This document shows positions 9,336 through 31,854 of a stretch of DNA of 64,000 nt, piece by piece. Below the pieces are notes generated by a model. It ran no database searches. It had not been told where the DNA came from and saw only the letters and a program-made list of their open reading frames with translations. Source of the DNA: Candidatus Nomurabacteria bacterium (GTDB lineage Bacteria > Patescibacteriota > Minisyncoccia > Phycocordibacterales > UBA918); NCBI GenBank assembly GCA_020632155.1, contig JACKGE010000001.1, positions 92,011-156,010 of the forward strand, read 5' to 3'. The first letter of the stretch is position 1. Each line of letters begins with the position of its first letter. The position numbers and the translations under genes are program-made.

Positions 9336-9364
9336 AAAAAAAGAAAGGGCGCAATTGCGCCCTT
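9336..9364 (-). terminator. rho-independent terminator downstream of map
   Basis: minus strand AAGGGCGCAATTGCGCCCTT followed by TCTTTTTTTCG. Confidence 0.6.
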
Positions 9365-9457
9365 GGCGTCCTCCTTATTTCGCCAGGATATTAAGCCTTT
9401 TGACACCGGGGTCTTGGGAGGACTTACTTAGTATAACAAACAAAATAAGAAAACAAA

Positions 9458-10240: not shown

Positions 10241-10273
10241 AGTGTCTATGTATCATAGATGATACATAAAAAA

Positions 10274-10870: not shown

Positions 10871-11477
10871 TGTGCTGTGTGCTTAAAGTATTAAAAATGT
10901 TGGTAACTATCTCTGCCATCTCTTGATTGGCTGATTCTAACCTGCCTTCTGTATTGTCGATGATAAAGTCGGCGTAGGGTTTTGACTTTACTTCCTCTAC
11001 ATAGCGCTGATGGCGAAGCTCTAGATGTTCTGGAGAGATAGGAGCGCGCGCTAGCGCTCGAGCTTTAAGCTCTTCCCAACTACCAGCTTCAATAAAAATG
11101 AGGGTGCGGTGCTCGTCGGGAACAATGGCTTGTAACTGTTGTACCCCTTGCAGCTCAATTTCAGTGATAAGTACTTCCCCTGCTTCGAGCCGATCGACGA
11201 TCTCAGACCTAAGGGTACCGTAGCGATGACCACTAAAGACAGCCCACTCAAGAAACTCTCCATTCATTACTTTCTTATCGAACTCCTCTTCAGTAATGAA
11301 GTAGTATTCTTTGCCGTTAGTTTCTCCGGGGCGCATAGCGCGCGTGGTGCAAGAGACAGAATAACGAAGCTCTGGGAATTTTTCCGTCAAAAAGCGGACG
11401 ATGCTGCCCTTGCCACTGCCGGTTGGCCCCATGATCAAGATAAGATGTCCAGTGATCTTGTCGGTATCCATGACCAC
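10860..11477 (-). CDS. gmk: guanylate kinase
   Basis: GPTGSGKGS...SCTTRAMRPGETNGKEYYF. Confidence 0.85.
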   Translation of the reverse strand: MVMDTDKITGHLILIMGPTGSGKGSIVRFLTEKFPELRYSVSCTTRAMRPGETNGKEYYFITEEEFDKKVMNGEFLEWAVFSGHRYGTLRSEIVDRLEAGEVLITEIELQGVQQLQAIVPDEHRTLIFIEAGSWEELKARALARAPISPEHLELRHQRYVEEVKSKPYADFIIDNTEGRLESANQEMAEIVTNIFNTLSTQHNDT

Positions 11478-11535
11478 CTAGAGTACCAGCTTTTACCCCA
11501 CATGCAACAAAATATCGTTGTGTTATGCTACTCTC

Positions 11536-12156
11536 ATGCATCGGCCACACATCATTACCCTCTCTGGAAAGCCCGGCAGTGGCAAATCATCCACGTCAGA
11601 CAAGTTGGCTGAACTTCTTGGCTATACACGGTATTCTTCGGGTGATTTGGTACGCAAAGTGGCAAAGCAACATCACCTGACGCTGGAGGAGTTCAACGAA
11701 CGCGCCAAGACCGACCACACACTGGATGATAAAGTGGACGAGGAGCTGCGTAAACTGCGTGATGAGAAAGACGTCGTCATCGATTCACGCCTCGGCTTCT
11801 ACTGGATACCGGAGTCGTTCAAGGTGTATCTTGAACTCGATATTGACCTCGCTTCCGCTCGTATATTTCGCGATAGTGCAATTACTCAGAGCCGCATCGA
11901 CAGTGGCGAGACCGGCAGTATGCAGGAAGTGGTACGCGAGGTAAAAGAACGTTACGAGAATGAACGCGAACGTTTCAGGGCACTATACGGTGTCGATCCA
12001 TATAATCCGCAGCGCTTTGATCTCATTATTGATACCTCACGGCAAAATCCGCAAAGTGTAGCGCTCACCATATTTGATAACTATAAGCAGTGGCTAAAGC
12101 GTGACGAGTGGGAGCAGGTCCGTGTTGATGTGCCGGTCGGGTACTCCTTACAGTAA
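11536..12156 (+). CDS. cmk: (d)CMP kinase-like P-loop nucleoside monophosphate kinase
   Basis: MHRPHIITLSGKPGSGKSST...; archaeal/short-type cytidylate kinase-like; internal start of ORF 11518. Confidence 0.6.
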   Translation: MHRPHIITLSGKPGSGKSSTSDKLAELLGYTRYSSGDLVRKVAKQHHLTLEEFNERAKTDHTLDDKVDEELRKLRDEKDVVIDSRLGFYWIPESFKVYLELDIDLASARIFRDSAITQSRIDSGETGSMQEVVREVKERYENERERFRALYGVDPYNPQRFDLIIDTSRQNPQSVALTIFDNYKQWLKRDEWEQVRVDVPVGYSLQ

Positions 12157-15817: not shown

Positions 15818-16213
15818 CTACCAAATAATAAAGAGCTGTTCACCACCAACATTCTTCTGCCGTGCTTCCTCACCGGTGAGGATACCAGCTGGTGTTGAAA
15901 GGATAACGTGCCCTTTACCAAATTTAACGGGATAAATCTCTGCGACCTTACTATAGAGGCGTCGTCCTGGCTTACTGACACGCTTTACACCGCTGATGTG
16001 ATGCGCGCCGCCAGAGCTATATTTAAGGGTGACTTCAAGGGTCTTCTTTGCCCCTTTGCCTGCTTCTGCAACCTCGCCTACATAACCCGCCTCTTTGAGT
16101 TTGTTTGCGATGTGCAGCTTAAGCTTTGAAAAAGGCACAGATACGGTCGCTTTTTTGACCATACCAGCATTCTTGAGCTGTACGATGAAATCACCAACTG
16201 TGTCGTTTACCAT
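15818..16213 (-). CDS. rpsH: 30S ribosomal protein S8
   Basis: [21 protein letters not shown]... Confidence 0.92.
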
Positions 16214-16392
16214 GATGATTTCTTAATACCTGGGATGTGACCCTCGTTAGCAAGCTCACGGAAGCAGATACGACAGATATCAAAATCTCGCATGTATCCA
16301 TGCTTTCGTCCGCAAAGCTTACAACGGCGGACCACCCGACACTTGTACTTTGGTTCGCGCTCCGCGCGAACCTTAATCGATGTTCGTGCCAT
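16207..16392 (-). CDS. rpsN: 30S ribosomal protein S14 type Z (zinc-binding)
   Basis: 61 aa, CxxC...CxxC. Confidence 0.9.
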
Positions 16393-16628
16393 TAGGTTTA
16401 ATGGTTAGCACTTCGTACATAACACACAAAACGAACTGTCGTTCGCTACGGTGAGATATTGCTATGACGTTGTGCAGTGGAGCAGTATCACCTAGATGTA
16501 GTGACTGACTCCGCTGATAATCCGGCTCGCAGCCTCTGGCTGCTCGCCTTCACAAAAGTGGCTCCCATCTACTCCCAAGCCGCTTTTATGGTGCGCCTAC
16601 TATACGTGAAAATAAGGAAATAGCAAGA

Positions 16629-17108
16629 CTATTCCTGATTTAGTTCTGATCGGAGCTCCATCCATATTTGGCCAAGCCAATTTTGACCTTGCCAGTCTGC
16701 ACCTCGCCCCCAACAACTGTCTTTAGGTGAATCTTCAATCAATTTGGCATTTTCAGTTTGCCGCAGTGTCTTCTCAATGTATGGATGCTGTGAGATCTTT
16801 GCGCGACAAATATCTTTCATGACGACTCTCTTTTCGTCTTCCCAAGATGGACGTAATTTATTCTGATACTTTATAGCCAATTTAAGTGCGTCATGGGCTG
16901 AAGTAGCAGACGCTATCTCTTCAACAATACTTACATCATCGAAACCGGCGGCTTGAAATGCGTGCTCAGATGTCTGCCACAAACGTTCTTGCCACATTAC
17001 TGAAAAAGCAGCAAAGTTGGAAAAACAGTATCCGAACTCTCCTCCGTAGAACAAAACGGGGTCTGTAATCTTCTCTGAGTATGTATTTTCAGAATTGTTT
17101 ACGAACAT
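16629..17108 (-). CDS. NADAR (YbiA-like, DUF1768) domain protein
   Basis: FYGGEFGYCFSNFAAFSVMWQERLWQTSEHAFQAAGF matches the NADAR/YbiA signature. Confidence 0.7.
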   Translation of the reverse strand: MFVNNSENTYSEKITDPVLFYGGEFGYCFSNFAAFSVMWQERLWQTSEHAFQAAGFDDVSIVEEIASATSAHDALKLAIKYQNKLRPSWEDEKRVVMKDICRAKISQHPYIEKTLRQTENAKLIEDSPKDSCWGRGADWQGQNWLGQIWMELRSELNQE

Positions 17109-17133
17109 ACACTATTTTTAGCACATTATTAAA

Positions 17134-17165
17134 AACCGGCCGAGGATCACTCCCCAGCCGGTTCT
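17134..17165 (-). terminator. hairpin terminator overlapping the 3' end of ORF 17147..17824
   Basis: minus strand AACCGGCTGGGGAGTGATCCTCGGCCGGTTTTTAATAAT. Confidence 0.5.
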
Positions 17166-17824
17166 GATATGACTGCCTTCCACAGCCGCTCAAGCTCGCG
17201 CCCGATTCGCAGCCGCCACGATATTTGAAGCCGTAAGAGGTACCGATATACTCCATGAAGCCGACCATACACCCATGAGTAGACATACTTGGGCACACGC
17301 TGGAGTACCGGCGGTACTAGTTTCTGGAGACCCAAAAACGCAACCGATCGGAACAAGAAATGCTGCGTGGACCGTAGCCCATACAACACATATGGTCGCA
17401 CCAAAGGCCAGAAACCAATGATAACGATCACAAAATGACCGAAGTAATGGTGCACGACCACAAACAGTGACACGCTGAAGGTGAGCGACAGAAGTATTCT
17501 AAATGGTGTTGAAACCAGAATATTCAGCCGTGTCTTCAATAGCAGCCAGAATGCGCGGCCGTACTGGCCCACCTGCTTGGATAGGGCGTCTACTCGTTTC
17601 CGTACCCAGCGCGGCGCCAACGGGCGCAAGAACCACAACATTAGGTACTGCGGCGCTGATATCAGCACAAAGCGACGAGTCAGTACCAATATCCACGCTA
17701 CAACCGAGTCGTACGTTACCTCCCTCAAGACCCATTCAATTTGGCGAACCAGTGTGTCCCGAGGCATAGCCTCGGGCGCAAAATATGCCCCCAGCCCAAA
17801 GAGGAGGAACAGCAATTTTCGCAT
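17147..17824 (-). CDS. hypothetical polytopic membrane protein (W/R/L-rich)
   Basis: 225-aa ORF inserted between rplE and rpsN; multiple overlapping alternative-frame ORFs make coding status uncertain. Confidence 0.4.
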   Translation of the reverse strand: MRKLLFLLFGLGAYFAPEAMPRDTLVRQIEWVLREVTYDSVVAWILVLTRRFVLISAPQYLMLWFLRPLAPRWVRKRVDALSKQVGQYGRAFWLLLKTRLNILVSTPFRILLSLTFSVSLFVVVHHYFGHFVIVIIGFWPLVRPYVLYGLRSTQHFLFRSVAFLGLQKLVPPVLQRVPKYVYSWVYGRLHGVYRYLLRLQISWRLRIGRELERLWKAVISEPAGE

Positions 17825-17947
17825 TAACTCCTCCTATGCCTGGATGCGAAGAACGTTCGGCGAAACAATACAATATTTCCTCGAAAAATCAACAAAAAAC
17901 ACTCCTAAGGGAGTGTTTTTTGTTTTCTGGAAGTCGAAAGTAGAGAA

Positions 17948-18502
17948 CTAAGCAGTTTCTTCTACTTTTTGAAACGGTAAACCAATGTGCCTTAGCAGTG
18001 CCTCGGCTTCTTCCTTAGTCTTGGCGGTGGTCACAATAGTAATCGCCAATGAGAATACGTCACGAATGTCTTCGTCAGCAGTCTCTGGGAAGATAGTGTG
18101 CTCCTTGATGCCAATGGTGATATTACCCATTTCATCAATTGCTGTTGCCTTAATACCGCGGAAGTCGCGAGTCTGTGGCAATGCAATGTGAATGAGCTTA
18201 TCAAGGAAGTGCTGCATGCGCTCGCCGCGCAGCGTCACCTGATAGCCAATGATGTCACCTTCGCGTAGCTTAAACGACGCGATGGACTTCTTGGCTGGAC
18301 GCGGTGATGGCTTTTGGCCAGTGATAGTCGCCAAACGCTCAACAATGAGTGCAATGCGATTCTTGTCGTCAATACGGCCAGTACCGGTTGAAACAACCAC
18401 CTTTTCAATACGCGGTGCCTGCATGACGTTTGCGTACGAGAATGTCTCTTTGAGTGCATCAAAGGCAGTCTGTACTTTGGTTTTGATGTTTGAAGTTGCC
18501 AT
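17948..18502 (-). CDS. rplE: 50S ribosomal protein L5
   Basis: 184 aa L5. Confidence 0.92.
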   Translation of the reverse strand: MATSNIKTKVQTAFDALKETFSYANVMQAPRIEKVVVSTGTGRIDDKNRIALIVERLATITGQKPSPRPAKKSIASFKLREGDIIGYQVTLRGERMQHFLDKLIHIALPQTRDFRGIKATAIDEMGNITIGIKEHTIFPETADEDIRDVFSLAITIVTTAKTKEEAEALLRHIGLPFQKVEETA

Positions 18503-18524
18503 AGTATCTATGCATTACCCGCTA

Positions 18525-18836
18525 TTAAATGGTCTTGCCGGTCTTACGAGAAATGCGGACCTTTTTGGCCTCAGCACCCTCACCTTCAGTCTTGTATCCA
18601 ACACGGACCGGCTTCTTGCCTTCTAAGAGAGCGACATTTGATACGTGAATCGCACCACTCTTTTCGATAATCTGTCCTTGTGAACGTGTACGGCGATTCT
18701 TCTGATGATGAGTCTGCACGTTTACACCTTCAACAATGACTTGTTCGGTTGTTGGCATTGAGACAATAACCTCACCGGTCTTGCCTTTATCTTTACCAGA
18801 GAGGACGATCACGGTGTCTCCTTTTTTGATCTTCAT
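18525..18836 (-). CDS. rplX: 50S ribosomal protein L24
   Basis: MKIKKGDTVIVLSGKDKGKTGEV (KOW). Confidence 0.92.
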   Translation of the reverse strand: MKIKKGDTVIVLSGKDKGKTGEVIVSMPTTEQVIVEGVNVQTHHQKNRRTRSQGQIIEKSGAIHVSNVALLEGKKPVRVGYKTEGEGAEAKKVRISRKTGKTI

Positions 18837-18861
18837 ATATATGTTGATTTAATGAGGGACA

Positions 18862-19233
18862 CTACACCACCTCAGGGGCGAGTGACACGATCTTCTGATA
18901 ACCTGCGTCCGCAATCTCACGCGGAATCGGACCAAAGACACGGTTAGCCTTTGGTTCCTTCTTTTCTTTGTCGACGAGCACAACAGCGTTGTCATCAAAG
19001 CTCACGTATGAACCGTCAGCTCGACGAAACGGCTTGCGCTGGCGCACAACGACGCCGTAGACAACGTCCTTTTTCTTCGTTTGCTTGCGTGGCTCAGCGG
19101 TCTGTACAGATAGCACAACCATTTCACCAAGCTCAGCATAACGCTTCTTTGAGCCTCCAAGTACCTTGAAGACGCGGCCGATCTTACCGCCAGAGTTGTC
19201 TGTGATCTTTACGATTGTCTGTGGTTGGATCAT
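18862..19233 (-). CDS. rplN: 50S ribosomal protein L14
   Basis: MIQPQTIVKITDNSGGK... Confidence 0.93.
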   Translation of the reverse strand: MIQPQTIVKITDNSGGKIGRVFKVLGGSKKRYAELGEMVVLSVQTAEPRKQTKKKDVVYGVVVRQRKPFRRADGSYVSFDDNAVVLVDKEKKEPKANRVFGPIPREIADAGYQKIVSLAPEVV

Positions 19234-19236
19234 ACG

Positions 19237-19509
19237 CTATGCATTAGTTACGAGCTCAAAACGCTTACGCTTCGAGAGTGGACGGGTCTCTTTGATTTCG
19301 ACCTTGCTGCCGACAGCAGCGGTATTACCCTTATCGTGCACCAGATACTTCTTAGTGCGACGGAGGAACTTCTTGTACTTTGGATGCTTGACGTAACGCT
19401 CTACCGCAACGGTACAGGTGTCCTGCATCTTAGAAGCCACGACGATTCCGCGGAGTACGCGGCCGCCAGACTTCTCAGTTGTAGTCTCTTTTTCTGTTGC
19501 CATATGCAT
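19237..19509 (-). CDS. rpsQ: 30S ribosomal protein S17
   Basis: 90 aa S17. Confidence 0.9.
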   Translation of the reverse strand: MHMATEKETTTEKSGGRVLRGIVVASKMQDTCTVAVERYVKHPKYKKFLRRTKKYLVHDKGNTAAVGSKVEIKETRPLSKRKRFELVTNA

Positions 19510-19716
19510 CTAGTTAGTCTCTGCCTTAGGAGCTTCCTTACCACGAGCGGTAAGTTCTGTTAGTGCGCGAGCGATCTCGTGACGAGCTGCGCGAACCGCA
19601 CGCACATCACGAGATGCGTGGTTGAAACGCGCGCTGCGCATTTCTTCTCGACGCTCAGTAACAAGCTCTTGTAACTCTTTGTCGCTCAGTTTGCGAATGT
19701 CTGCCATTGTTTTCAT
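19510..19716 (-). CDS. rpmC: 50S ribosomal protein L29
   Basis: MKTMADIRKLSDKELQELVTERREEMRSARF...; start moved to internal Met (ORF begins 19770). Confidence 0.85.
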   Translation of the reverse strand: MKTMADIRKLSDKELQELVTERREEMRSARFNHASRDVRAVRAARHEIARALTELTARGKEAPKAETN

Positions 19717-19814
19717 AATATTTCGTATTTCGCTAGTTCGCTCTTCGTTTTTCGAAGGTGCCCGAGGCACTCTCGAAGTGCTAAAAGCGAGGGACGAAGT
19801 GCGAGAAACTTGGG

Positions 19815-20249
19815 CTACGCCCTAGTTTCTTCACGAGTTACAAAACGGCCTTTAAGAGGAAGTTTGGCGGCTGCTTTGCGCATTGCCTCACGTGCCACCT
19901 CTTCAGAGACACCGTCTACTTCGAATAATACTCGACCGGGTGCTACTTCAAATACAAAGTGGTCTGGGTCACCCTTACCCTTACCCATACCTACCTCAGC
20001 TGGCTTTTTAGTAATCGGCTTATCAGGGAAGATACGAATCCATATCTTACCGGTCTTACCAAGCGTACGTGAGATAACACGACGTGCCGCCTCAATCTGA
20101 TTTGATTTAACGCGAGCCGGTGAGGTGGCCTTAAGGCCGTACGAGCCGAACGCAACAGTGACGCCGCGAGTCTCAGGACGCTGAAGCGCCTCCTCACTCT
20201 TACGACCAATCTGCCACTTTCGGTGTTTTACTTTCTTCGGAAACAACAT
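19815..20249 (-). CDS. rplP: 50S ribosomal protein L16
   Basis: MLFPKKVKHRKWQIGRK... Confidence 0.93.
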   Translation of the reverse strand: MLFPKKVKHRKWQIGRKSEEALQRPETRGVTVAFGSYGLKATSPARVKSNQIEAARRVISRTLGKTGKIWIRIFPDKPITKKPAEVGMGKGKGDPDHFVFEVAPGRVLFEVDGVSEEVAREAMRKAAAKLPLKGRFVTREETRA

Positions 20250-20254
20250 ACGCG

Positions 20255-20974
20255 TTAGTTACGAGGGGTGCGACGAGGACGCGCGGCTGGCTTTTCAGCC
20301 TCACCACTGGCGCGACGATCTGCAAAGACGTCACCACGGTAGATCCACACCTTGATACCAATGGCACCGTACGGAAGTACTGCAGTTACGCGCGCAAAAT
20401 CAATGTCTGCACGTAGGGTTTGTAGTGGGATTCGACCTTTCTTGAGCTCTTCGCGACGAGCCATATCAGCTCCGCCAAGACGTCCGGATACAATGATACG
20501 AACACCTTGTACGTCACGATTAGCCATTACCTTCTCAACGGTCTGCTTAAGCACGCGACGAAATGGCATGCGCTTTTCTAGACCTTCCGCTACCATCTGG
20601 CCGACGATAGTGGCGCTCGTTTCTGGTGAGCGAACCTCTTCAATATCGATCTTAAGCTCTGGCTTCTCCTCAAGTTTGAGGGTACGCAAGAGCATATCGA
20701 CATCCTTCTTTAGTTTAGTAGCTCCTTCGCCGCTACGACCAATGACCAACCCTGGGCGGGCGGTCTTGATGAGGATACGAAGGGCTTTTTCATCACGCTC
20801 GATCTCTACCGTGTCGACTGACATACCTTTAAGGCGCTTTGCCAGCAACTTACGGATAGCAGCATCGGTGCGTAGATATTCACGAAAACGCTTTTGGTCA
20901 GCTGCGAACCAGCGGCTACGCCAGTCGCGGTTGATTCCAATGCGTTGTACGTATGGATGTGCTACGTGTGTCAT
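20255..20974 (-). CDS. rpsC: 30S ribosomal protein S3
   Basis: 239 aa, KH domain plus C-terminal basic tail. Confidence 0.93.
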   Translation of the reverse strand: MTHVAHPYVQRIGINRDWRSRWFAADQKRFREYLRTDAAIRKLLAKRLKGMSVDTVEIERDEKALRILIKTARPGLVIGRSGEGATKLKKDVDMLLRTLKLEEKPELKIDIEEVRSPETSATIVGQMVAEGLEKRMPFRRVLKQTVEKVMANRDVQGVRIIVSGRLGGADMARREELKKGRIPLQTLRADIDFARVTAVLPYGAIGIKVWIYRGDVFADRRASGEAEKPAARPRRTPRN

Positions 20975-21059
20975 AATTTAGGTTATAGGTTATAGGTTAT
21001 AGGGAAATCGTATTCGACAATTTCTGACACCTGAAACCTGACACCTGTTAACTTAGGCT
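20975..21059. repeat. palindromic heptamer-repeat element copy C1 in rplV-rpsC intercistronic space
   Basis: plus strand TAGGTTA TAGGTTA TAGGTTA TAGGG - hairpin GAAATCG..ATTTC - TGACACC TGAAACC TGACACC TG. Confidence 0.65.
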
Positions 21060-21377
21060 TTAGCCTAGTTCGACAGTGATGTGACTGTTTCGACGATTAA
21101 TTGGGGACGCGCTACCGCGGGCACGAGGCATAAAGCGCTTATAGGTTGCGCCCTTGTCTACAGTGACCTTTTTGATGGTAAGGTGGTCGACATTCTTGCC
21201 AGATTGAGCCGCGTTGGCTGCTGCTGACGAAATGACCTTAGCAAACGGACCAGCCGCACGCTTATCGACAAACTGCAAGGTGGCCAACGCCTCCTTTACT
21301 TTCTTGCCGCGTACGAGGTCTGCAATGAGACGAACCTTACGAGGTGACTGGCGGTAATTCTTAAGTACTGCTTTCAT
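21060..21377 (-). CDS. rplV: 50S ribosomal protein L22
   Basis: MKAVLKNYRQSPRKVRLIADLVRGKKV. Confidence 0.9.
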   Translation of the reverse strand: MKAVLKNYRQSPRKVRLIADLVRGKKVKEALATLQFVDKRAAGPFAKVISSAAANAAQSGKNVDHLTIKKVTVDKGATYKRFMPRARGSASPINRRNSHITVELG

Positions 21378-21467
21378 GATTTTAGGTTATAGGTTGTAGG
21401 TTATAGGTTGTAGAGAAATCGTCTTTGAAGATTTCTGAAACCTGAAACCTGTCACCTGCAAACTTCG
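21378..21467. repeat. palindromic heptamer-repeat element copy C2 in rpsS-rplV intercistronic space
   Basis: TAGGTTA TAGGTTG TAGGTTA TAGGTTG TAG - hairpin AGAAATCGTCTTTGAAGATTTCT - GAAACCT GAAACCT GTCACCTG. Confidence 0.65.
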
Positions 21468-21794
21468 TTAGGCGGCCTTAGCTGCTTTAGCTGCTGCTAT
21501 TTCAGCCTCCTTCTTCTTCTGGTCAAGCTCCTTCTGCATCTTACCGCCGTGGCGATAGAACTTCTTGGTTGGGGCAAATTCTCCGAGACGATGACCTACC
21601 ATTTCTTCTGTACACTGGACTGAGAGGTGCTCTCGGCCATTGTGTACGCCAAAAGTAAAGCCAACCATCTCCGGTGAGATGACCGCATCACGTGACCATG
21701 TTTTGATCACTCCTGCCTCGGCCGGCTTCTTGCCGTCGATTTTCTTTAGCAGGCGCTCATCTACGAATGGGCCTTTATATACTGATCGTGACAT
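21468..21794 (-). CDS. rpsS: 30S ribosomal protein S19
   Basis: [19 protein letters not shown]...; Lys/Ala-rich C-terminal tail. Confidence 0.92.
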
Positions 21795-21934
21795 AGATTG
21801 TAGTAACGAATAAACGACTCAAAAAGAGCCTTGTATCGCAGTGCGATTAACGGTCACACAACGACATCATCTTGTTCTTTTTTGTGCGTACCGCTGCTGC
21901 CAGGCTTTAGTACACCGAGGTTTGGAACGGCCGT

Positions 21935-21963
21935 ATACTACGGGAAACTAAGGGGATTGTCAA
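21935..21963 (-). promoter_or_regulatory. putative sigma70-like promoter for rpsS block (TTGACA-17-TAGTAT on minus strand)
   Basis: needed because a terminator follows rplB; sequence-only prediction. Confidence 0.4.
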
Positions 21964-22029
21964 TGTTCTTGCTGAAACGCGCCGGACATGTTTTATTGGT
22001 TATAGAGAACATGTTCTAGGGAGGCTTCA

Positions 22030-22467
22030 ATGAAGGAACATACGCTCCGTCGAATCACTGTGGCCGTGTTTTTTGCACCTTTTTTGGTGAGTTGTCAGTA
22101 TTGCTACGAACTACAGACAGAGATGGCCCCGCAAATGATAGCGGGTAAACCATGGACACCTGCAATGCAAGCTTTTTGGTTTAGGTACACCCAAACCAAC
22201 AGCGTGATGATGGTGTCATTGGCATTATTGATTGTTCTACATTTCTGGAAGTCAGGATCAAGGTCTCGAGCCGCAGATCTGGTGAGATATCTGTACTTCG
22301 GTCTACTTGAAGGACTTACTATTGCCGTTGCGACATACACCTACGGAATCAGTGTGGTATTCACCACGACAACCGCAGAGTGGTTTTCCTACTTTTTGGT
22401 GAGCTGGGGCCTTTATATTGGCCATTTGCAGAGCCACGAACTTTCTCGACTTCTACCCAAAAACTAA
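22030..22467 (+). CDS. hypothetical membrane protein (145 aa), opposite strand, inserted between rplB and rpsS
   Basis: SD GGGAGG 6 nt before ATG; about 4 TM. Confidence 0.55.
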   Translation: MKEHTLRRITVAVFFAPFLVSCQYCYELQTEMAPQMIAGKPWTPAMQAFWFRYTQTNSVMMVSLALLIVLHFWKSGSRSRAADLVRYLYFGLLEGLTIAVATYTYGISVVFTTTTAEWFSYFLVSWGLYIGHLQSHELSRLLPKN

Positions 22468-22480
22468 GGAGGCGAATAGC

Positions 22481-22675
22481 ATGTGTGATCTTGTTCATTC
22501 CATGCATATCAAGGCTTGCGGTGGCGAATATGACGGGAAACACCCCATCGCCGAGCTCAAGAAAAAAGCAAAAAGAGGCGACGCCAACGCAAAAAGCGCA
22601 CTGCTCCTAAGGGCGCAGCTCGGCACATCTGATTCGCATGAGGCGGCAAAAGCAGTGCAAGAACTCGGCCTCTGA
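22481..22675 (+). CDS. hypothetical small protein (64 aa)
   Basis: AAGGAGG-8nt-ATG (MCDLVHSMHIKACGG...); internal start of ORF 22418. Confidence 0.45.
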   Translation: MCDLVHSMHIKACGGEYDGKHPIAELKKKAKRGDANAKSALLLRAQLGTSDSHEAAKAVQELGL

Positions 22676-22725
22676 AGACAAGGGGTTGAAAAAACTAATA
22701 GACTCGGCGAGGAATCGCCGGGTTT

Positions 22726-22764
22726 TCTGTTACCTAGACAAAAGCCGCGCCCTATGGGCGCGGC
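22726..22764 (+). terminator. 18-bp perfect hairpin (TAGACAAAAGCCGCGCCC-TAT-GGGCGCGGCTTTTGTCTA)
   Basis: perfect inverted repeat after small + strand gene. Confidence 0.55.
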
Positions 22765-22796
22765 TTTTGTCTAGGCATAGTGATACGCTTACTAAT

Positions 22797-22833
22797 AATC
22801 AAAAAACCTGCGCAAGGCGCAGGTTTTTTGATT
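22797..22833. terminator. bidirectional terminator abutting the rplB stop codon (AATCAAAAAACCTGCGC-AAG-GCGCAGGTTTTTTGATT)
   Basis: 17-bp stem with A6/T6 flanks; would terminate rplC-rplB transcription before rpsS. Confidence 0.65.
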
Positions 22834-23695
22834 ATTTCTTCCTGTTCTGCATGAGCTTGCCGGGTTTGCGGCGAGACACGATGAACTTGTTTGAGTACTT
22901 CTTTGGTTTACGGGTCTTTTGACCTTTACCAGTCGGACGACCTTGTGCGGTGCGTGAACGCTTGTGACCACGAGGACTGCGTCCCTCACCACCTCCATGT
23001 GGGTGATCAACTGCGTTCTTGGCGCTACCACGTGTCTTCGGGCGAAGACCCATATGGCGAGCACGTCCCGCCTTACCGATGTTTACCAAACGGTGTTCCT
23101 CATTTGAGGCTTCACCAACTGTTGCCCAGCAAGTCGAGAGGATACGGCGCACCTCCGATGATGGGAGTTTGAGCTGCGTGTACCCACCGTCATGAGCTAC
23201 CACCTCGGCGTAGTTACCGGCGCTACGCGCAATGCGAGCTCCAGCACCCGGCTTTAGTTCAATAGCGTAGACAAAGGTACCTGCTGGTAGTTTACCAAGT
23301 GGCAAACGATTACCAAGCTTAGCCTTTGCTTTCTCCGAAACGGTGAAGGTATCACCTACCTTCATACGCTGTGGTGCTACGATGTAGCGACGCTCACCGT
23401 CTTTGTAGAGTACAAGGGCGATAAACGCGCTACGGTAGGGATCGTATTCGACAGATTCTACCTTCGCTGGAATATCCTTCTTATCGAACTTGAAGTCGAT
23501 CTCACGATACTTGCGCTTGTTGCCAGCACCACGATACCACGTAGTGGTACGACCTTGACTGTTACGACCACCGGTTGAACTCTTACCCTTTACAAGGGCC
23601 TTGTGTGGCTGGTTCTTAGAGCCTGAGAGTTTCTCTTTGTATGAGACAACGGTCATGCCACGACGACCAGCTGATGTTGGTTTGTATTTTTTCAT
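22832..23695 (-). CDS. rplB: 50S ribosomal protein L2
   Basis: 287 aa; ...GGGEGRSPRGHKRS... Confidence 0.93.
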   Translation of the reverse strand: MKKYKPTSAGRRGMTVVSYKEKLSGSKNQPHKALVKGKSSTGGRNSQGRTTTWYRGAGNKRKYREIDFKFDKKDIPAKVESVEYDPYRSAFIALVLYKDGERRYIVAPQRMKVGDTFTVSEKAKAKLGNRLPLGKLPAGTFVYAIELKPGAGARIARSAGNYAEVVAHDGGYTQLKLPSSEVRRILSTCWATVGEASNEEHRLVNIGKAGRARHMGLRPKTRGSAKNAVDHPHGGGEGRSPRGHKRSRTAQGRPTGKGQKTRKPKKYSNKFIVSRRKPGKLMQNRKK

Positions 23696-23699
23696 ATAC

Positions 23700-24071
23700 C
23701 TAGACCAGATTTATTGAGTCGCCGTCTTTAAGATAGACGTACGCTTTCTTAAGACCTTTCTCTGATACAGTTCGACCCTTACTGCGAGATTGATATGAAC
23801 GTGGTGCTTTATTGACGATGTTCACCTTCACCGGCGTCACTCCAAAGAGGGCTTTGACTGCATCACGTACATCGTACTTGGTAGCATCGCGTCGCACTAC
23901 AAACGTGTAGACGTTCTGCTCTCCTTTCTGAACCGCTTTTTCGGTGAGACGTGGCTTCTGGATGACCGACTCAAGGTTACGGTCAGTCACAAGCGCTTTC
24001 TTGTGTGACGTTACCTTTGGCGCTGCATCCTTGCTCTCTTGGGTTTTCGTTTTTCGACTAAAGAGTGCCAT
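23700..24071 (-). CDS. rplW: 50S ribosomal protein L23 (N-terminal extension)
   Basis: L23 core ...YTFVVRRDATKYDVRDAVKALFGVTPVKVNIVN... Confidence 0.88.
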   Translation of the reverse strand: MALFSRKTKTQESKDAAPKVTSHKKALVTDRNLESVIQKPRLTEKAVQKGEQNVYTFVVRRDATKYDVRDAVKALFGVTPVKVNIVNKAPRSYQSRSKGRTVSEKGLKKAYVYLKDGDSINLV

Positions 24072-24098
24072 GATTTCTAATTAATTTAACAATTAGCC

Positions 24099-24761
24099 TT
24101 ACGCTACCCGCTTTTCGAGTGCTTCAATAGTAGCGCTTGGTTCTGCCACGAGGACATATTTGTATGTCAGAAGATCAACTGAATTGATGTCCTTGACTTG
24201 CGCAACGAGGAAATTCCCGAAATTACGGAAGCTTTTCTCTGTCGCTTCATTGCGGGTAGGAAGGACAATAAGCGCAGTATTTTTACGCTTGGTTGCAAGG
24301 TCTTCCTTACCAGCACCACCAGCAATGGCTTTGATAATGTTCTTAGCCTCTGCTGCCTTTGGAGACTCGATAGCAAGAGAGTCAACAAATACGACTTCAC
24401 CGTCTGAGAGCTTCTTAGATAGAGTGCTCGCAAACGCCTTGGCGCGTACTTTTTTGTTTATCTTCTTGCTGTAGTCTTTATCACTACGTGGGCCGTGAGC
24501 GACACCACCACCGGTCCAAATTGGACTTCGGCGTGAGCCGTGACGAGCGCGACCAGTACCCTTCTGCCGCCATGGCTTTTTACCACCACCAGAAACCTCA
24601 CTGCGGTCCTTGGTATGAGCAGCGCTGGTACGAGCGTTGGACTGCATAGAGACCACTACCTCGTGAACGAGGTCAGGATTCCATGCGACACCAAACACTG
24701 ACTCAGGCAAAGCAACTTTGCCAGCTTCTTTTCCTTCTTTATTGAAGATCTTGGTTTCCAT
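24099..24761 (-). CDS. rplD: 50S ribosomal protein L4
   Basis: ...GGGKKPWRQKGTGRARHGSRRSPIWTGGGVAHGP... Confidence 0.92.
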   Translation of the reverse strand: METKIFNKEGKEAGKVALPESVFGVAWNPDLVHEVVVSMQSNARTSAAHTKDRSEVSGGGKKPWRQKGTGRARHGSRRSPIWTGGGVAHGPRSDKDYSKKINKKVRAKAFASTLSKKLSDGEVVFVDSLAIESPKAAEAKNIIKAIAGGAGKEDLATKRKNTALIVLPTRNEATEKSFRNFGNFLVAQVKDINSVDLLTYKYVLVAEPSATIEALEKRVA

Positions 24762-24764
24762 ACG

Positions 24765-25385
24765 CTAGACGCTACGAACTTCTACTAATGTCCCTCGTCG
24801 ACCTGGGATTGCTCCCTTAATGAGGATGATATTTTGGTCTGGATTCACCTGCAGAACCTTAAGGTTCTTAACCGTGATACGGTCGCCACCCATGCGGCCA
24901 GCCATGCGGAGGCCTTTGATGACGCGACCAAAACCGGTTGAACCGATTGAACCCGGTTCACGGTGCGAGTGCTTCTGTCCGTGTGAGGCGCGACCACCGG
25001 CAAAACCGTGACGCTTAACCACACCCTGAAAGCCCTTACCTTTGGAAATAGCTGAAACCGCTACGACATCGCCAACCGCAAAGATAGACGCATCGATAGC
25101 CTGTCCCTCACTAAATCCATCAAGTGATTCCGCTTGTCCTTGGCGAACACGGAATTCTTTGACGAAACGCTTGGCGCCACCTTGGTGACCGAGCTCAGCC
25201 TTAGAAAGGCGGTGCTCTTTTTGCTCACCGGCAGCAACCTGAACGGCCTCATAACCGTCCTTCTCAGCCGTCTTAAGAGCGGTGACCACAAGTGGGTCCA
25301 CTTTAAGCACTGTTGCTGGAGAGGCGGTGCCGGTCTCATCGAAGACCTGCGTCATGCCGTCCTTGGTTCCTAAAATAAATTTCAT
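24765..25385 (-). CDS. rplC: 50S ribosomal protein L3
   Basis: 206 aa L3. Confidence 0.92.
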   Translation of the reverse strand: MKFILGTKDGMTQVFDETGTASPATVLKVDPLVVTALKTAEKDGYEAVQVAAGEQKEHRLSKAELGHQGGAKRFVKEFRVRQGQAESLDGFSEGQAIDASIFAVGDVVAVSAISKGKGFQGVVKRHGFAGGRASHGQKHSHREPGSIGSTGFGRVIKGLRMAGRMGGDRITVKNLKVLQVNPDQNIILIKGAIPGRRGTLVEVRSV

Positions 25386-25594
25386 TTACTTTGGACTATC
25401 CTAATAAATTCTTATTAAGACCCAAACAAAATCGCACTTGGCAAGTCGCGAGCACAGCTCACGCATTACCAAGCGCGATTTTGTGCCCATTGGTTCTCAG
25501 GAATGCAGGCACTCCCTCACCGAACATAGGTCTTTAATAAGCTGGTGGTAGTATACGGATTTTGGACAAATTAGCAAGTTGCGCACCAATGTGA

Positions 25595-25624
25595 TTGACA
25601 AAAGCCTCATTGGAGCGGTATGGT
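25595..25624 (+). promoter_or_regulatory. putative promoter TTGACA-18-TATGGT driving the small peptide ORF
   Basis: sequence-only. Confidence 0.35.
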
Positions 25625-25634
25625 ACGAAGTAGG

Positions 25635-25691
25635 AGGGGTCAGCATGCGGACAGACCTTCTCTTGATCCTCGTGATCTTTTTGTACATATT
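25635..25691 (+). CDS. 18-aa hydrophobic peptide MRTDLLLILVIFLYIFRA (type I toxin-like, Ibs/Sib style) between rpsJ and rplC
   Basis: AGGAGGGG SD 6 nt upstream of ATG, own promoter, downstream terminator; too short for ORF track. Confidence 0.3.
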
Positions 25692-25842
25692 CCGCGCATA
25701 AGGAAGCTGCGATGAAAAGCAGGAATTGTGAAAGGATTTTGACAACCTTCGGATTCCTCCTCAACTATCGCAACCCTCATTGGTAGGACTACGAAGCCTG
25801 CCAAAGACCGCTAGGCCGGATAGCCTGTGAGATAAAGAAGCT

Positions 25843-25889
25843 CTGCGATGTAACCACCAACGTGTCACGTCGCAGGGCTTTTCTTTTTG
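25843..25889 (+). terminator. plus-strand hairpin + T-run (CTGCGATG...CGTCGCAG GGCTTTTCTTTTTG)
   Basis: 8-bp stem with G.T wobble, T-rich tail. Confidence 0.5.
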
Positions 25890-25895
25890 AAAATA

Positions 25896-25935
25896 AACCA
25901 AAACCCCGCGGCTGAAGCCGCGGGGTTTTGGTTTT
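25896..25935. terminator. bidirectional GC-rich terminator (AAACCCCGCGGC-TGAA-GCCGCGGGGTTTTGGTTTT) downstream of rpsJ
   Basis: 9-bp GC stem with A/T runs both sides; separates rpsJ from rplC. Confidence 0.65.
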
Positions 25936-26076
25936 GGCAACTAAGTTGAACTATTCTGAGGAAAAATGGATGAGATGCAAGGCACCGGAGGAAAATAATG
26001 TGAGTGCGGCTACTAGCCGAGCGAACATTATTTTACCGATCGGTAACAAAGCAGGTCGCCATTTTTACCAGAATAA

Positions 26077-26433
26077 CTACATCATCTTGACGTCAATAGA
26101 CACCCCAGATGGCAGAGAGAGGTTGGTCAGTGCTTCCACGACCTTTCCGCTCGGGTTCATGATGTCGATGACACGCTTATGCATGCGCATCTCAAACTGT
26201 TCTCGCGCATCCTTATGAACGAAGGTCGAGCGATTTACCGTGTACTTTTTGATCTCAGTTGGAAGCGGAATCGGACCAACAACCTTGGCGTCAAAACGCA
26301 AGGCGGTGTCGATGATCTGCTTTACACTGGTATCGAGGATCTTGTGTTCATAAGCACGAACACGAATACGGAGTTTTTGAATCTCTCCAGCAGGCGCCTT
26401 GGCGCTGCTTTTTGTTGTTTTAGTAGTTGCCAT
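26077..26433 (-). CDS. rpsJ: 30S ribosomal protein S10 (N-terminal extension)
   Basis: ...IRVRAYEHKILDTSVKQIIDTALRFDAKVVGPIPLPT... Confidence 0.9.
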   Translation of the reverse strand: MATTKTTKSSAKAPAGEIQKLRIRVRAYEHKILDTSVKQIIDTALRFDAKVVGPIPLPTEIKKYTVNRSTFVHKDAREQFEMRMHKRVIDIMNPSGKVVEALTNLSLPSGVSIDVKMM

Positions 26434-26538
26434 ATTTTAAGGTTTTAGTTTATAGGTTTAAGGTTTCAGTGTTTGGTGTAAGAAACGCCAAAGCATTTCT
26501 GCAACCATCAAACCTTATCCCTGTCCTTTACATTGTTG
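26434..26538. repeat. heptamer-repeat element copy C3 (diverged) in tuf-rpsJ intergenic leader
   Basis: AAGGTTT TAGTTTA TAGGTTT AAGGTTT CAGTGTT - hairpin AGAAACGCCAAAGCATTTCT. Confidence 0.55.
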
Positions 26539-27729
26539 CTAGGCAACAATTTTAGTTACCACACCGGCACCAACAGTCTTACCACCCTCACGGATAGCAA
26601 AGCTCTGCTGTTCCTCAAGTGCTACTGGAGCTACAAGCTTAACCTTAAAGGTCGCAGTATCACCAGGCATAACCATCTCAACACCATCAGCGAGGCTTAC
26701 CTCACCGGTAACGTCAGTGGTACGAATGTAGAACTGTGGCTTGTAACCGGTAAAGAATGGAGTGTGACGACCACCTTCGTCTTTCGCGAGGACGTATACC
26801 TCAGCTTCAAACTCAGTGTGTGGGGTCACGCTGCCAGGAGCAGAAATGACTTGACCACGGTGAACGTCTTCCTTCTTTGTACCACGGAGCAAGATACCAG
26901 CGTTGTCACCAGCCTGAGCTGAATCAAGTGACTTGTTGAACATTTCAACACCGGTAACAGTGGTCTTAGTAGTGTCTTTGATACCAACGATCTCACACTC
27001 ATCACCAACCTTGACTTGACCGCGTTCTACACGACCGGTTACTACCGTACCGCGACCTTCAATTGAGAAGATGTCCTCGATTGGCATCAAGAATGGCTTG
27101 TCGAGTTCACGAACTGGCATTGGGAAGTATGAATCCATCGCATCAACGAGCTCGAGCACCTTAGCACCCCAGTCTCCATTTGGCTCCTCAAGAGCCTTAA
27201 GACCTGAACCCTTGATGATCGGAGCATCAGCACCTTCATAACCATTGGCAGTAAGGAGTTCACGAAGTTCCTCCTCAACCAACATGATCATGTCCTCATC
27301 GTCGACCATGTCGCACTTGTTAAGGAATACGATGATCTTTGGCACACCCACCTGCTTTGCAAGGAGTACGTGCTCACGAGTCTGAGGCATAGCACCATCA
27401 GTAGCTGCTACTACGAGCACAGCGCCGTCCATCTGGGCAGCACCAGTGATCATGTTCTTGATGTAGTCAGCGTGCCCTGGAGCGTCAATATGAGCGTAGT
27501 GACGATTTGGTGTCCAGTACTCTGAGTGAGAAAGAGAAATAGTAATACCTCGCGCCTTCTCTTCTGGCGCTTTGTCGATGTCCTCAACAGCCTTTACGTT
27601 AGCGCCGTAGTCGCCGCCTTTGGCATTGAGAACCTGAAGGATAGCAGCAGTGAGCGTAGTCTTACCATGGTCTACGTGACCAATGGTACCTACGTTCATG
27701 TGCGGCTTTGAACGATCAAAATCTGACAT
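26539..27729 (-). CDS. tuf: elongation factor Tu
   Basis: [30 protein letters not shown]...; start at internal Met of ORF 26539..27762. Confidence 0.95.
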
Positions 27730-28030
27730 AAACTTTAAGTTAATGTAAGTAATAATCCGCACACAGCTGCTTTTTTAATGCATAAAAAAGCCGTGCACGT
27801 GCACTCAGGGAGAGTGGCGCGAGAACGACACACTCTCTTTGGGCACACATACGTGTGAAAGAGCATTGATATTTACTCCCACACAGCAAAATAGCTGTTA
27901 GCGGTGGCGGTATGGTACATGAGCCGCCTTAAGATTGCAAGTGTGTTTCGTACGCCGCTTGTTGTTTGACAGCTTCCGTTTCTCTGGTACTTTAAATCAC
28001 AATTTGGCACCAAACTTAAGGAGGTTAGCC

Positions 28031-28627
28031 ATGTTCTTCAGATTGCTTCAGGCAGTTTTGTCTGCTCTTCTGTTCAGCACTGCTGCAAGCTATGCTGCGC
28101 AAAAGCAGTTGGCTATCGGCGGGCCCACGTCGCAGCCAATTGGTCACTATGGATTCTGTCAGCGCCTGCCGGCAGAGTGCCGGTCGAATGCGAAAGATTA
28201 CAGGCTGGTCTTGACGCGGGGAATGCTGCTACAAATAAGCGGAATCAACCGGCGCGTAAACGAGTCAGTCCGTCCTCGCAACGACATCGATGTCTACGGA
28301 CGCGATGAGTGGTGGGCTTTGCCGAGCGATGTCGGTGACTGCGAGGACTACGCGCTGCTCAAGCGGCAACTATTGCACCAAGCCGGCATACCGCTATCTA
28401 GCCTTCTAATTGGCGTAGTGCGACAGAAAAATGGCGATGGTCACGCAGTGCTGGTCGTTCGAACAACCAGAGGCAACTTGGTCCTCGATAACCTGACGGA
28501 CAAAATTCGCCCATGGGATGAGGTTCCTTACCGTTGGCTCAAGGTCCAAGCGCCAGAACACAGCGGCAAGTGGCGCACCGTGAATCTCGTTGATCTTGAC
28601 CCAGCCACCGCCTCACTGTCGGAGTAA
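28031..28627 (+). CDS. secreted transglutaminase-like cysteine protease (BTLCP/LapG-like, COG3672)
   Basis: AAGGAGG SD; signal peptide MFFRLLQAVLSALLFSTAASYA; YGRDEWWALPSDVGDCEDYALLKRQLL...DGHAVLVVRTTRGNLVLDN matches the BTLCP Cys-His-Asp core; higher GC than flanks. Confidence 0.7.
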   Translation: MFFRLLQAVLSALLFSTAASYAAQKQLAIGGPTSQPIGHYGFCQRLPAECRSNAKDYRLVLTRGMLLQISGINRRVNESVRPRNDIDVYGRDEWWALPSDVGDCEDYALLKRQLLHQAGIPLSSLLIGVVRQKNGDGHAVLVVRTTRGNLVLDNLTDKIRPWDEVPYRWLKVQAPEHSGKWRTVNLVDLDPATASLSE

Positions 28628-28742: not shown

Positions 28743-29150
28743 ATGCTCAGTTTCGACGCCTTGGAACGAGCATTTGAATCTGCTCGTGTTCAATCAAATA
28801 AATACAATGGCCGCACAGCCAACGAAAAGGGGCAACGCGCCGAAGTGCGCTGCCTCAATGCAGTCAAGGAAGTCATCGCTGACTGCCCGTGGGCGTACAG
28901 TGCCCGTCTTGCCAGTCAAAAGGAGGACTCATCCGGCATCGACATCGTGATTGACTCCGTTCTTGGGAAGCTCTATCTTCAAGTAAAGAGTTCCCGGTAC
29001 GGCGCATTTCGATACCGGCGTAAGCGGCGGCGAGCTGAAGCTCTGATAATCATCGTCTTTGAGAATATGCACGATGAAAAGCTCAAGCGAAAGGTGCACA
29101 ATGCCCTATATGTCTTACGCAGACGAGTTCTACAACTGCGGCACAACTAG
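28743..29150 (+). CDS. hypothetical protein (135 aa), possible PD-(D/E)xK-like motif (GIDIVID...LQVK)
   Basis: complete ORF in same higher-GC islet. Confidence 0.45.
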   Translation: MLSFDALERAFESARVQSNKYNGRTANEKGQRAEVRCLNAVKEVIADCPWAYSARLASQKEDSSGIDIVIDSVLGKLYLQVKSSRYGAFRYRRKRRRAEALIIIVFENMHDEKLKRKVHNALYVLRRRVLQLRHN

Positions 29151-29400: not shown

Positions 29401-29464
29401 ACTACTTAAGTCCGACTTAGTAGCTTATTCCGCCTTCTTCTTACAGAAGCTGTTCAGGTTGTAT

Positions 29465-29500
29465 GACAGAACCCTGCAAGCAAGCTTGCAGGGTTCTGTC
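29465..29500 (-). terminator. perfect 16-bp hairpin GACAGAACCCTGCAAG-CAAG-CTTGCAGGGTTCTGTC downstream of fusA
   Basis: perfect palindrome 24 nt after fusA stop. Confidence 0.55.
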
Positions 29501-29523
29501 GACAACCTCTTGCAGAATGACAC

Positions 29524-31683
<2,160 letters not shown>

Positions 31684-31825
31684 AAATAATATTTGGTTGC
31701 TTAGTTGCTTAGTAACGTGTGTCAGTTGATAAACCCTCCCTATTTGTGCACTTGGGTCGGCACCTTCGGCGCCGACCCACTCCCGCGCAAACGAAATAGA
31801 AATAGCCCGAAGGCTAGACGGCAGT

Positions 31826-31854
31826 ACTATACGGTATATATGCACGATTAGCAA
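31826..31854 (-). promoter_or_regulatory. putative fusA-specific promoter TTGCTA-17-TATAGT followed by about 140-nt structured leader
   Basis: sequence-only; leader contains UUCG-loop hairpin and 8-bp GC hairpin. Confidence 0.45.

Follow-up and report, generated by a model that had tools for sequence, protein, structure and literature searches.

The S10-spc cluster of ribosomal-protein genes is a textbook example of conserved gene order, and 16 syntenic genes form a standard marker set for uncultured bacteria. In Escherichia coli the str, S10, spc and alpha genes are grouped into units, each with its own promoter and terminator and with an mRNA site, often a mimic of rRNA, to which a protein of that unit binds in autogenous feedback on translation (the Nomura model). 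Here we examine these genes in a 64,000-nucleotide stretch of a Candidatus Nomurabacteria bacterium (assembly GCA_020632155.1, contig JACKGE010000001.1, positions 92,011 to 156,010), called the window below and the frame for all coordinates, in which a comparable grouping is seen but with its boundaries in other places. The cuts fall at rpsJ|rplC, rplB|rpsS and rplE|rpsN, while the E. coli boundary between S10 and spc (rpsQ|rplN) is fused, with 3 nt between the genes; in addition, rpsL-rpsG lie 11.8 kb from fusA, fusA stands as a unit by itself, and tuf shares one with rpsJ. We think it probable that the S10/spc cluster was divided anew in an ancestor, giving autonomous transcription units, each with its own autoregulation, and spacers between them in which genes can come and go.

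Several described systems resemble parts of this arrangement. Archaeal and cyanobacterial S10 is linked to EF-Tu in a str-type operon ending in tuf-rpsJ, and this is similar to the window in that a tuf-rpsJ unit stands apart from the genes from rplC onward; neither the rplB|rpsS and rplE|rpsN cuts nor the leaders reported here are known to belong to that arrangement. The E. coli S10 leader, a site of attenuation and translational control by L4, likewise places a structured leader and a terminator-like hairpin ahead of the genes for L3, L4, L23 and L2, but the leader found here stands upstream of rplC rather than rpsJ and has another sequence and structure (AAGACCUAYGU...GACCAAUGGGCA...P2). In E. 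coli spc mRNA, S8 has a target that resembles its rRNA site and overlaps the start of rplE within the operon (PMC3616713); one leader described below has the same core, AAGUCAG...CUGAUACUG, between a lower and an upper helix, but belongs to the 5' untranslated region (UTR) of rpsN, where a separate transcript is predicted to begin, matches no Rfam family, and is followed by a U-run hairpin in some genomes including the window. Leaders at internal positions of the S10 cluster have been proposed as the L4-Archaeoglobi and L2-Alphaproteobacteria candidates (Eckert & Weinberg 2020, PMC7247131), and that survey of ribosomal leaders lists none for the present genes in Patescibacteria. Small sets of genes are also known to invade the inter-operon spacers of the ribosomal cluster, with content varying by lineage (PMC8046335), E. 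coli tufA..rpsJ being an example. Unrelated gene sets occupy spacers here too, but at sites that fall within operons in Gammaproteobacteria and Bacilli, and the spacers are conserved clade-wide while their contents turn over. We searched the literature and found no description of this operon architecture for bacteria of the candidate phyla radiation (CPR).

In the window the ribosomal genes of str/S10/spc, as identified by Pfam, all read on the minus strand. In their order of reading, rpsL (44400-44813) and rpsG (43681-44154) are followed, after 11.8 kb filled by unrelated genes, by fusA (29524-31685), for which 31685 is the true start codon rather than the open reading frame (ORF) start at 31854, the Pfam GTP_EFTU match beginning at ORF residue 66. 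Next come tuf (26539-27729) and rpsJ (26077-26433), then the rplC-rplD-rplW-rplB block (25385 down to 22832), which ends with rplB, encoding L2 (22832-23695; Pfam Ribosomal_L2_N/C, E 2e-47). The block from rpsS through rplE (21794 down to 17948) begins with rpsS, encoding S19 (21468-21794; Pfam Ribosomal_S19, E 7e-32), and the block from rpsN through secY (16392 down to 12415) has rpsH, encoding S8, as its second gene. The gap between rpsJ and rplC measures 691 bp and that between fusA and tuf 1.76 kb. At rplE|rpsN, a break that the earlier note on this DNA did not list, a terminator is followed by a 225-codon ORF, orf225 (17147-17824, minus strand), and a gene for a NADAR-domain protein (16629-17108, minus strand; Pfam NADAR, E 7e-29).

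Hairpins bound these blocks, and every terminator hairpin in the window folds more stably than 200 of 200 shuffled versions. The one at the rplB stop codon (arms 22794-22813 and 22817-22836) is a 20-bp, fully complementary inverted repeat with a 3-nt loop and A-tract and T-tract arms, a predicted bidirectional intrinsic terminator serving both strands that contains the TAA stop itself (-28.3 kcal/mol, z -7.1, 0/200 shuffles). Two plus-strand genes in the rplB|rpsS gap, a putative membrane protein of 145 codons (orf145, 22030-22467) and a small protein of 64 codons (orf64, 22481-22675), lie 13 nt apart, carry Shine-Dalgarno (SD) sequences GGGAGG and AAGGAGG, respectively, converge on rplB, and end in a hairpin of their own (22733-22775, plus strand; 20-bp perfect inverted repeat, -42 kcal/mol, z -9.8). 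The remaining terminators, all on the minus strand, follow tuf-rpsJ, 140 nt past the rpsJ stop (25893-25935; -35.3 kcal/mol, z -6.7), the rpsS through rplE block (17891-17924; -20 kcal/mol, z -5.0), fusA (29456-29508; -44.4 kcal/mol, z -6.4) and rpsL-rpsG (about 43519-43560; -28 kcal/mol, z -7.7). Where the next block begins, predicted promoters stand upstream on the same strand: TTGACA-17-TAGTAT for rpsS (21963..21935, 10/12 matches) and motif matches TTGCTA-16-TATACT for rplC (25577..25550), TTGCTA-16-TATAGT for rpsN (16626..16599) and TTGCTA-17-TATAGT for fusA (31854..31826), the last followed by a structured leader of about 140 nt (within 31686..31854). A promoter is likely upstream of rpsL as well.

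Much of this anatomy had been described in the earlier note, which we could follow closely in the rpsS promoter, the two SD-bearing plus-strand genes after rplB, the hairpin and roughly 700 bp separating rpsJ from rplC, the terminated rpsL-rpsG pair about 12 kb from fusA, and the promoter and leader that fusA has to itself. Its bidirectional terminator at the rplB stop and its perfect hairpin behind the plus-strand pair are both present, but each stem is 20 bp long and not, as given there, 17 and 18 bp.

We compared the window with the best 80 related loci, centred on rplB and with cluster genes placed by tblastn (labelled L001 and so on where one must be named). RplB of these relatives (Paceibacteria) is 63-83% identical to that of the window, the metagenome-assembled genomes (MAGs) with identities up to 83% being labelled Paceibacterota, Kaiserbacteria or Nomurabacteria; on this basis and that of an NCBI record for orf64, given below, the organism belongs to the Patescibacteria, within the CPR. 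A comparison of breakpoints across relatives had been put forward as a check on the fragmentation, and the same three junctions are open, in up to 59 relatives and by 0.1-6.9 kb. Between rpsJ and rplC all 59 genomes have a gap, of 220-6439 nt; rplB|rpsS is open by 261-6883 nt in 57 of the 59 genomes with both genes; and rplE|rpsN spans 103-4003 nt (n=37 genomes). The corresponding E. coli distances are 32, 16 and 14 nt. The other junctions (rplC-rplD, rplD-rplW, rplW-rplB, rpsS-rplV, rplV-rpsC, rpsC-rplP, rplX-rplE, rpsN-rpsH) are tight, mostly below 50 nt, with occasional wider gaps of up to 343 nt. The layout is thus an old, clade-wide architecture and not a peculiarity of this genome.

That the joins were created by assembly or binning, giving chimeric contigs within the cluster, is a reading to which we give practically no credence. 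The sequences are indeed MAG-derived, but dozens of genomes that were assembled independently, including one designated a chromosome (CP060229.1), show the same junction pattern, and the arrangement around orf145 is found identically on seven independent contigs from different samples and assemblers.

The hairpins follow the same distribution as the breaks. When 80 nt around each stop codon were folded in all genomes, the median energies after fusA, rpsJ, rplB and rplE were -33, -31, -34 and -28 kcal/mol (z -5.0, -4.7, -7.1 and -4.2), versus -9 to -16 kcal/mol for the other 16 genes examined, whose z is about 0. Structures below -25 kcal/mol occur after those four genes in 62-83% of genomes (fusA, 76%), but in only 0-5% after 11 other ribosomal-protein genes and tuf, 15% after rplO and 19% after secY. 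Conservation of the hairpins, on which the earlier proposal of separately terminated blocks could have failed, was therefore found at these stop codons; the A-tract/GC-stem/T-tract architecture recurs in relatives while the terminator sequences vary between genomes. Of 76 relatives, 67 have an equivalent hairpin no more than 150 nt from the rplB stop, starting at a median of +1 nt from it, unlike the fusA, rpsJ and rplE terminators, which begin 15-19 nt past the stop. Each combines a GC-rich stem-loop with a U tract 3' of a stop codon, and from this anatomy and its positional conservation we predict that transcription terminates there.

A separate feature of the rplB end was seen in 15 of the 76 relatives, in which the last 10-13 nt of rplB together with the stop codon recur 30-71 nt downstream in exact inverted form (L001, L013, L015, L021, L022, L029, L031, L034, L036, L041, L050, L051, L056, L073 and L077; at about locus positions 10840-10930, with rplB ending near 10846). 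The resulting stem closes a multi-helix junction around one or, mostly, two hairpins, and covariation links it to the C-terminal codons. Such copies arise at a rate of 1% in shuffles and 0-3% for other genes, and none is present in the window.

The rival that deserves most attention is that the cluster is still mostly one long operon, in which the hairpins are leaky or protect against RNase, the leaders are internal operators and the promoters auxiliary. Three observations are consistent with it: in E. coli, S8 has its target within the spc operon, at the beginning of rplE (PMC3616713); the hairpin of rplB includes the stop codon, so that a ribosome terminating there could keep it from folding; and in many relatives the gap genes are on the same strand as the ribosomal genes, as read-through would allow. 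Against it, the terminators have the full A-tract/U-tract architecture, the gaps reach 6.9 kb, and in the window and many relatives convergent cargo on the opposite strand, with its own terminator, stands between the blocks. Strong -35 and -10 elements are, moreover, conserved at every block start. Upstream of rpsS the form kept in relatives is TTGAC(A/T)-17-TACTAT, with a match of at least 10/12 in 41% of them, and for rpsS and rpsN the rates are 41-47%, compared with 2.9% of random windows. With sigma-70-type hexamers, spacers of 16-18 nt and conserved positions, these are predicted promoters that are presumably used to start each block. Because of the convergent cargo, the multi-kilobase gaps and the conserved strong promoters, we regard a single operon as unlikely and favor separate units.

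Short tandem A/C-rich repeats were noticed directly before AUG codons that lack an SD sequence, in the rpsS-rplV spacer (21378-21467; CAACCTATAACCTA twice before rplV) and before fusA (about 31686-31730; ACTAAGCA twice), and CCCTAAA-type repeats stand upstream of rpsN in L007, L010 and L018. The cargo ORFs, in contrast, carry canonical GGAGG. These A/C-rich repeats may be an alternative signal for translation initiation.

What fills the gaps differs from genome to genome. Among gap ORFs of at least 50 amino acids at the three junctions, 427 sequences fall into 337 clusters, 307 of them singletons, and cargo shared with the window is found only in its nearest relatives. The orf145 product finds itself alone (99%) among 5.8e9 proteins, and 7 metagenome contigs carry its gene in that setting; of the six frames the annotated one is best, with hydrophobic segments and a codon score of -0.09 against 0.37 +/- 0.14 for core genes. 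orf64, annotated at NCBI as hypothetical protein H6783_00700 ("Candidatus Nomurabacteria bacterium"), also scores best in its annotated frame and has one further homolog at 73% identity; L001 and L003, the nearest relatives, encode weak homologs in the corresponding gap. L001 likewise has a NADAR ortholog (73% identity) in its rplE|rpsN gap. Between fusA and tuf the window carries, on the plus strand, a BTLCP cysteine peptidase gene (27935-28627; Pfam Peptidase_C93, E 7e-58) with a homolog in the same gap of L003, and orf135 (28743-29150). No convincing Pfam, NCBIfam or PADLOC match was found for orf145, orf64, orf225 or orf135. Cargo that recurs among relatives includes secreted paralogs with a TSP1-like domain, PG_binding_1 proteins of about 490 amino acids with acidic repeats, DUF3298 proteins, a PhoH-PIN protein and, in the rplB|rpsS gap of 21 genomes, an opposite-strand protein of about 105 amino acids with a weak DUF2103 match. 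An example of the last (L035, 13007-13324, minus strand) has no NCBIfam match; DUF2103 is a predicted metal-binding family, and the protein is absent from the window.

These contents might be taken to mean that foreign or mobile DNA recently entered an intact operon in this genome and brought the hairpins and promoters with it. Cargo codon scores of -0.18 to 0.05, against 0.37 for core genes, are atypical, orf145 is an ORFan, and cargo content varies between genomes, all of which would fit. The breakpoints, terminators, promoters and leaders are conserved, however, among relatives at 63-83% RplB identity, and the leaders belong to the ribosomal-protein genes and not to the cargo. Nor do the gaps have the marks of a mobile element or genomic island: the gap ORFs tested include no integrase or transposase Pfam domain, a scan of the window found no tRNA, and no direct repeats flank the gaps, short repeats occurring only at chance level. 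We consider recent insertion very improbable. Two descriptions in the earlier note need adjusting to match. The 1.7-kb islet it placed between tuf and fusA exists, with plus-strand genes of which the BTLCP gene is shared with L003, but the layout as a whole is not a set of recent foreign islets; and the opposite-strand insertions it described hold for the rplB|rpsS gap of the window, while relatives carry cargo on both strands.

Just 5' of the orf145 SD, at 21986-22024 on the plus strand, lie direct repeats ACATGTTTTA and ACATGTTCTA and a palindrome, GAACATGTTC, in a divergent-promoter region shared with rpsS, and these repeats could be an operator.

Of the leaders that follow the predicted promoters, the one before rpsN points most directly to a ligand. 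In the window the promoter and leader occupy 16393-16626 (minus strand), with an S8-site mimic at 16473-16528, whose core reads AGUCAC...GUGAUACUG, and a U-run hairpin at 16430-16447; L001 also has a U-run hairpin 3' of the motif. In L001 and L010 the core (AAGUCAG...CUGAUACUG) agrees letter for letter with positions 595-601 and 637-645 of E. coli 16S, which in helix 21 form the core to which S8 binds. A covariance model (R2) gave 22 matches, one per genome and all upstream of rpsN, with the window copy at 60.7 bits (E 1e-12), and the flanking helices covary (0.478 versus 0.224 in shuffles). As judged from sequence, then, the rpsN leader is a mimic of the S8-binding core of 16S helix 21, the rRNA site of a protein encoded in its own unit, and constitutes direct sequence-level evidence for relocated autoregulation. 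It does not overlap the rplE start as the E. coli operator does; the motif lies 3' of the rplE terminator and of a promoter. Its distance from the rpsN AUG is 22-38 nt in some genomes and 70-185 nt in others, including the window, and the U-run hairpin that follows the S8 site suggests attenuation beyond translational repression alone.

The rplC leader is the best conserved of the three. Together with its promoter it spans 25386-25577 (minus strand), is supported by motif, folding and covariation, and consists, in order, of AAGACCUAUGUUCG, a P1 stem, GAACCAAUGGGCAC, a long P2 stem with a U-rich tail, and GGGUCUU, with an invariant loop CCAAUGGGCA. The motif CCAATGGGCA (at most 2 mismatches) occurs upstream of rplC in 71 of the 80 loci, and all 30 occurrences of the exact 12-mer GACCAATGGGCA are upstream of rplC, with none elsewhere in 1.32 Mb. 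Its P2 stem is 94.6% paired, with a covariation of 0.347 versus 0.174 in shuffles (0/500 reaching it), and in the window this leader has a folding energy of -66.7 kcal/mol (z -7.0). A 76-codon ORF with a TTG start in the rpsJ|rplC gap (25534-25764) was considered as a gene and set aside; it overlaps the rplC promoter and leader and has a poor codon score.

Upstream of rpsS, the leader (21795-21934, minus strand) was recognized by conserved motifs and covariation in relatives. Read from its 5' end, the motif GUUCCAAACCUC comes first; two hairpins follow, one with CCUGGCAG in its loop and one, at 21834-21866, with the invariant CCGUUA; last is a weak hairpin, after which UUUAUUCGUU stands directly before the SD-less AUG. 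In relatives it forms a three-tier helix capped by the invariant CCGUUA loop, and in most genomes it ends in a U-run hairpin right before an AUG without an SD; a terminator-like, or attenuator-like, hairpin just 5' of the AUG is common to the rplC and rpsS leaders in most genomes. When 27 sequences were aligned with MAFFT, blind to structure, compensatory changes were present at each of the 17 pairs called by RNAalifold, 81% of cells pair, and covariation is 0.518 versus 0.261 in shuffles and 0.17-0.29 in slid controls, with 0/500 shuffles reaching the observed value on any of five measures. The covariance model (R1) returned 24 significant matches in 1.32 Mb, one per genome, on the operon strand and all just 5' of rpsS. 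Seven relatives (L005, L009, L047, L048, L050, L054 and L057) carry an extra or alternative module between the main leader and the AUG, consisting of GTTCCAGGAATTYGCCC...GGGCAAATTCGGAAC and then ATAGTCGTTACACTCCTTT.

A conserved 5' UTR structure with covariation is the hallmark of a ribosomal leader, and the rpsS, rpsN and rplC leaders all have it. They are three candidate ribosomal leaders new to Rfam 15: no family reached its gathering score in the window or in 7 relatives, the known leader families (S10_leader, L10, L13, L19, L20, L21, S15, S4 and others) included, and at E<=10 the region 16200-26500 gave only generic terminator look-alikes such as Thr_leader. We also looked for rRNA counterparts of the rpsS and rplC leaders. 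The 5S family of Rfam gave no match to them, and E. coli 23S contains CCUGGCAG at 32, CCGUUA at 96 and CCAAUGGCAC at 2703; the stretch around CCGUUA is not known to be conserved in other bacteria, which leaves the lead to 23S mimicry unconfirmed. A metagenome scan for GGATGCCYTGG-N35-65-GCCGTTAC, too weak a pattern, returned chance matches in coding DNA and no 23S, and there is no rRNA gene in any related locus, so no rRNA of the same clade could be compared.

Taken together, sequence anatomy, conservation of position, covariation and motif specificity are what we observe, and separately terminated and re-initiated blocks, as first proposed for the window alone, are supported by terminators, promoters and covarying leaders conserved in relatives. 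Several points weigh against our preferred reading. The rplB|rpsS break is not universal because L061 and L068 keep the two genes adjacent, at 12 and 120 nt. Where a hairpin overlaps a stop codon, termination may be inefficient whenever a ribosome occupies that stop, and much read-through could result. In the window the rpsS leader is shortened, scores below E=1 with model R1 and as a whole is no more stable than shuffles (z -0.2), and the shuffle controls do not fully correct for relatedness among the sequences. Finally, the assignment of ligands to the rplC and rpsS leaders is unsupported, and mimicry of 23S rRNA is not confirmed. As to L061 and L068, other junctions are widened in that lineage (rplW-rplB, 245 and 200 nt; rplV-rpsC, 113 and 96 nt; rpsC-rplP, 125 nt), which suggests a different partition of the cluster.

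With these points taken into account, we propose that the ancestor of the clade (Paceibacteria) split the str/S10/spc supercluster into the units [rpsL-rpsG], [fusA], [tuf-rpsJ], [rplC-rplD-rplW-rplB], [rpsS...rplE] and [rpsN...secY]. Each would end in a canonical intrinsic terminator, that of rplB starting at the stop codon, and the units whose upstream regions were examined (fusA, rplC, rpsS and rpsN) would begin with a sigma-70-type promoter and a structured leader of 100-200 nt, with a likely promoter at rpsL. The leaders presumably bind proteins and regulate their units, probably giving each its own autogenous feedback. S8 would bind the rpsN leader and exert its control at the 5' end of the rpsN...secY unit, repressing translation where the site abuts the AUG and, where a U-run hairpin follows as in the window, favoring attenuation. 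For the rplC and rpsS leaders the partner would presumably be encoded within the block concerned, L3 or L4 being suitable for rplC and L24, L22, L29 or another for rpsS. At a junction flanked by a terminator and a promoter-leader there is no need for transcription to pass through, so genes can insert and leave freely; the DNA from terminator to promoter would be selectively free, with lineage-specific cargo gained and lost there.

The earlier note had gone on to suggest that such fragmentation implies rewired stoichiometric control, and the comparative evidence, including the S8-site mimic, supports this. A bolder version, which we hold only tentatively and think somewhat doubtful, is that stoichiometry control was rebuilt from scratch in a major patescibacterial clade, with each of at least three sub-operons under its own rRNA-mimic attenuator leader, to which a primary rRNA-binding protein from the same block would bind (S8 for rpsN; L3 or L4 for rplC; an L24-, L22- or L29-type protein for rpsS), and the conserved spacers beside these highly expressed units serving as long-lived landing pads. 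Fast-evolving accessory genes, many of them in relatives secreted or cell-surface, would then cycle through the spacers, and the stop-overlapping terminator of rplB, or the stop-enclosing three-way junction of 20% of relatives, would couple termination to ribosome occupancy.

Other features of the window lie outside these junctions. The rpsL-rpsG intergenic region (44155-44399) is 245 nt long, compared with 96 nt in E. coli, AT-rich and hairpin-prone, and could hold an S7-type operator. Within the 12-kb stretch between rpsG and fusA is a 245-codon reverse-transcriptase (RT) ORF (41396-42133, minus strand; Pfam RVT_1, E 4e-14; best PADLOC match RT_III-A, E 3.5e-17; a weak NCBIfam match to retron St85 RT), which is short for a retron or group II RT and adjoins 1 kb (42001-43000) with a GC content of 0.40. 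Beyond the 3' end of secY (8664-12156) a plus-strand cytidylate-kinase-like gene is followed by gmk, adk, map and ndk; this run of nucleotide-kinase genes stands in place of a continuation into infA-rpmJ-rpsM-rpsK-rpsD-rpoA-rplQ, and the alpha-operon genes are absent from the window.

In conclusion, ribosomal-protein operons with autogenous leaders are a known kind of system, and what is new here is the set of operon boundaries together with three candidate leaders, one of which has an obvious candidate ligand in S8. Insertion-tolerant spacers inside marker clusters matter for binning and for marker-scaffold heuristics in CPR genomes. That a whole clade has cut the S10-spc cluster at non-canonical junctions indicates that evolution can re-engineer the co-regulation of ribosomal proteins.

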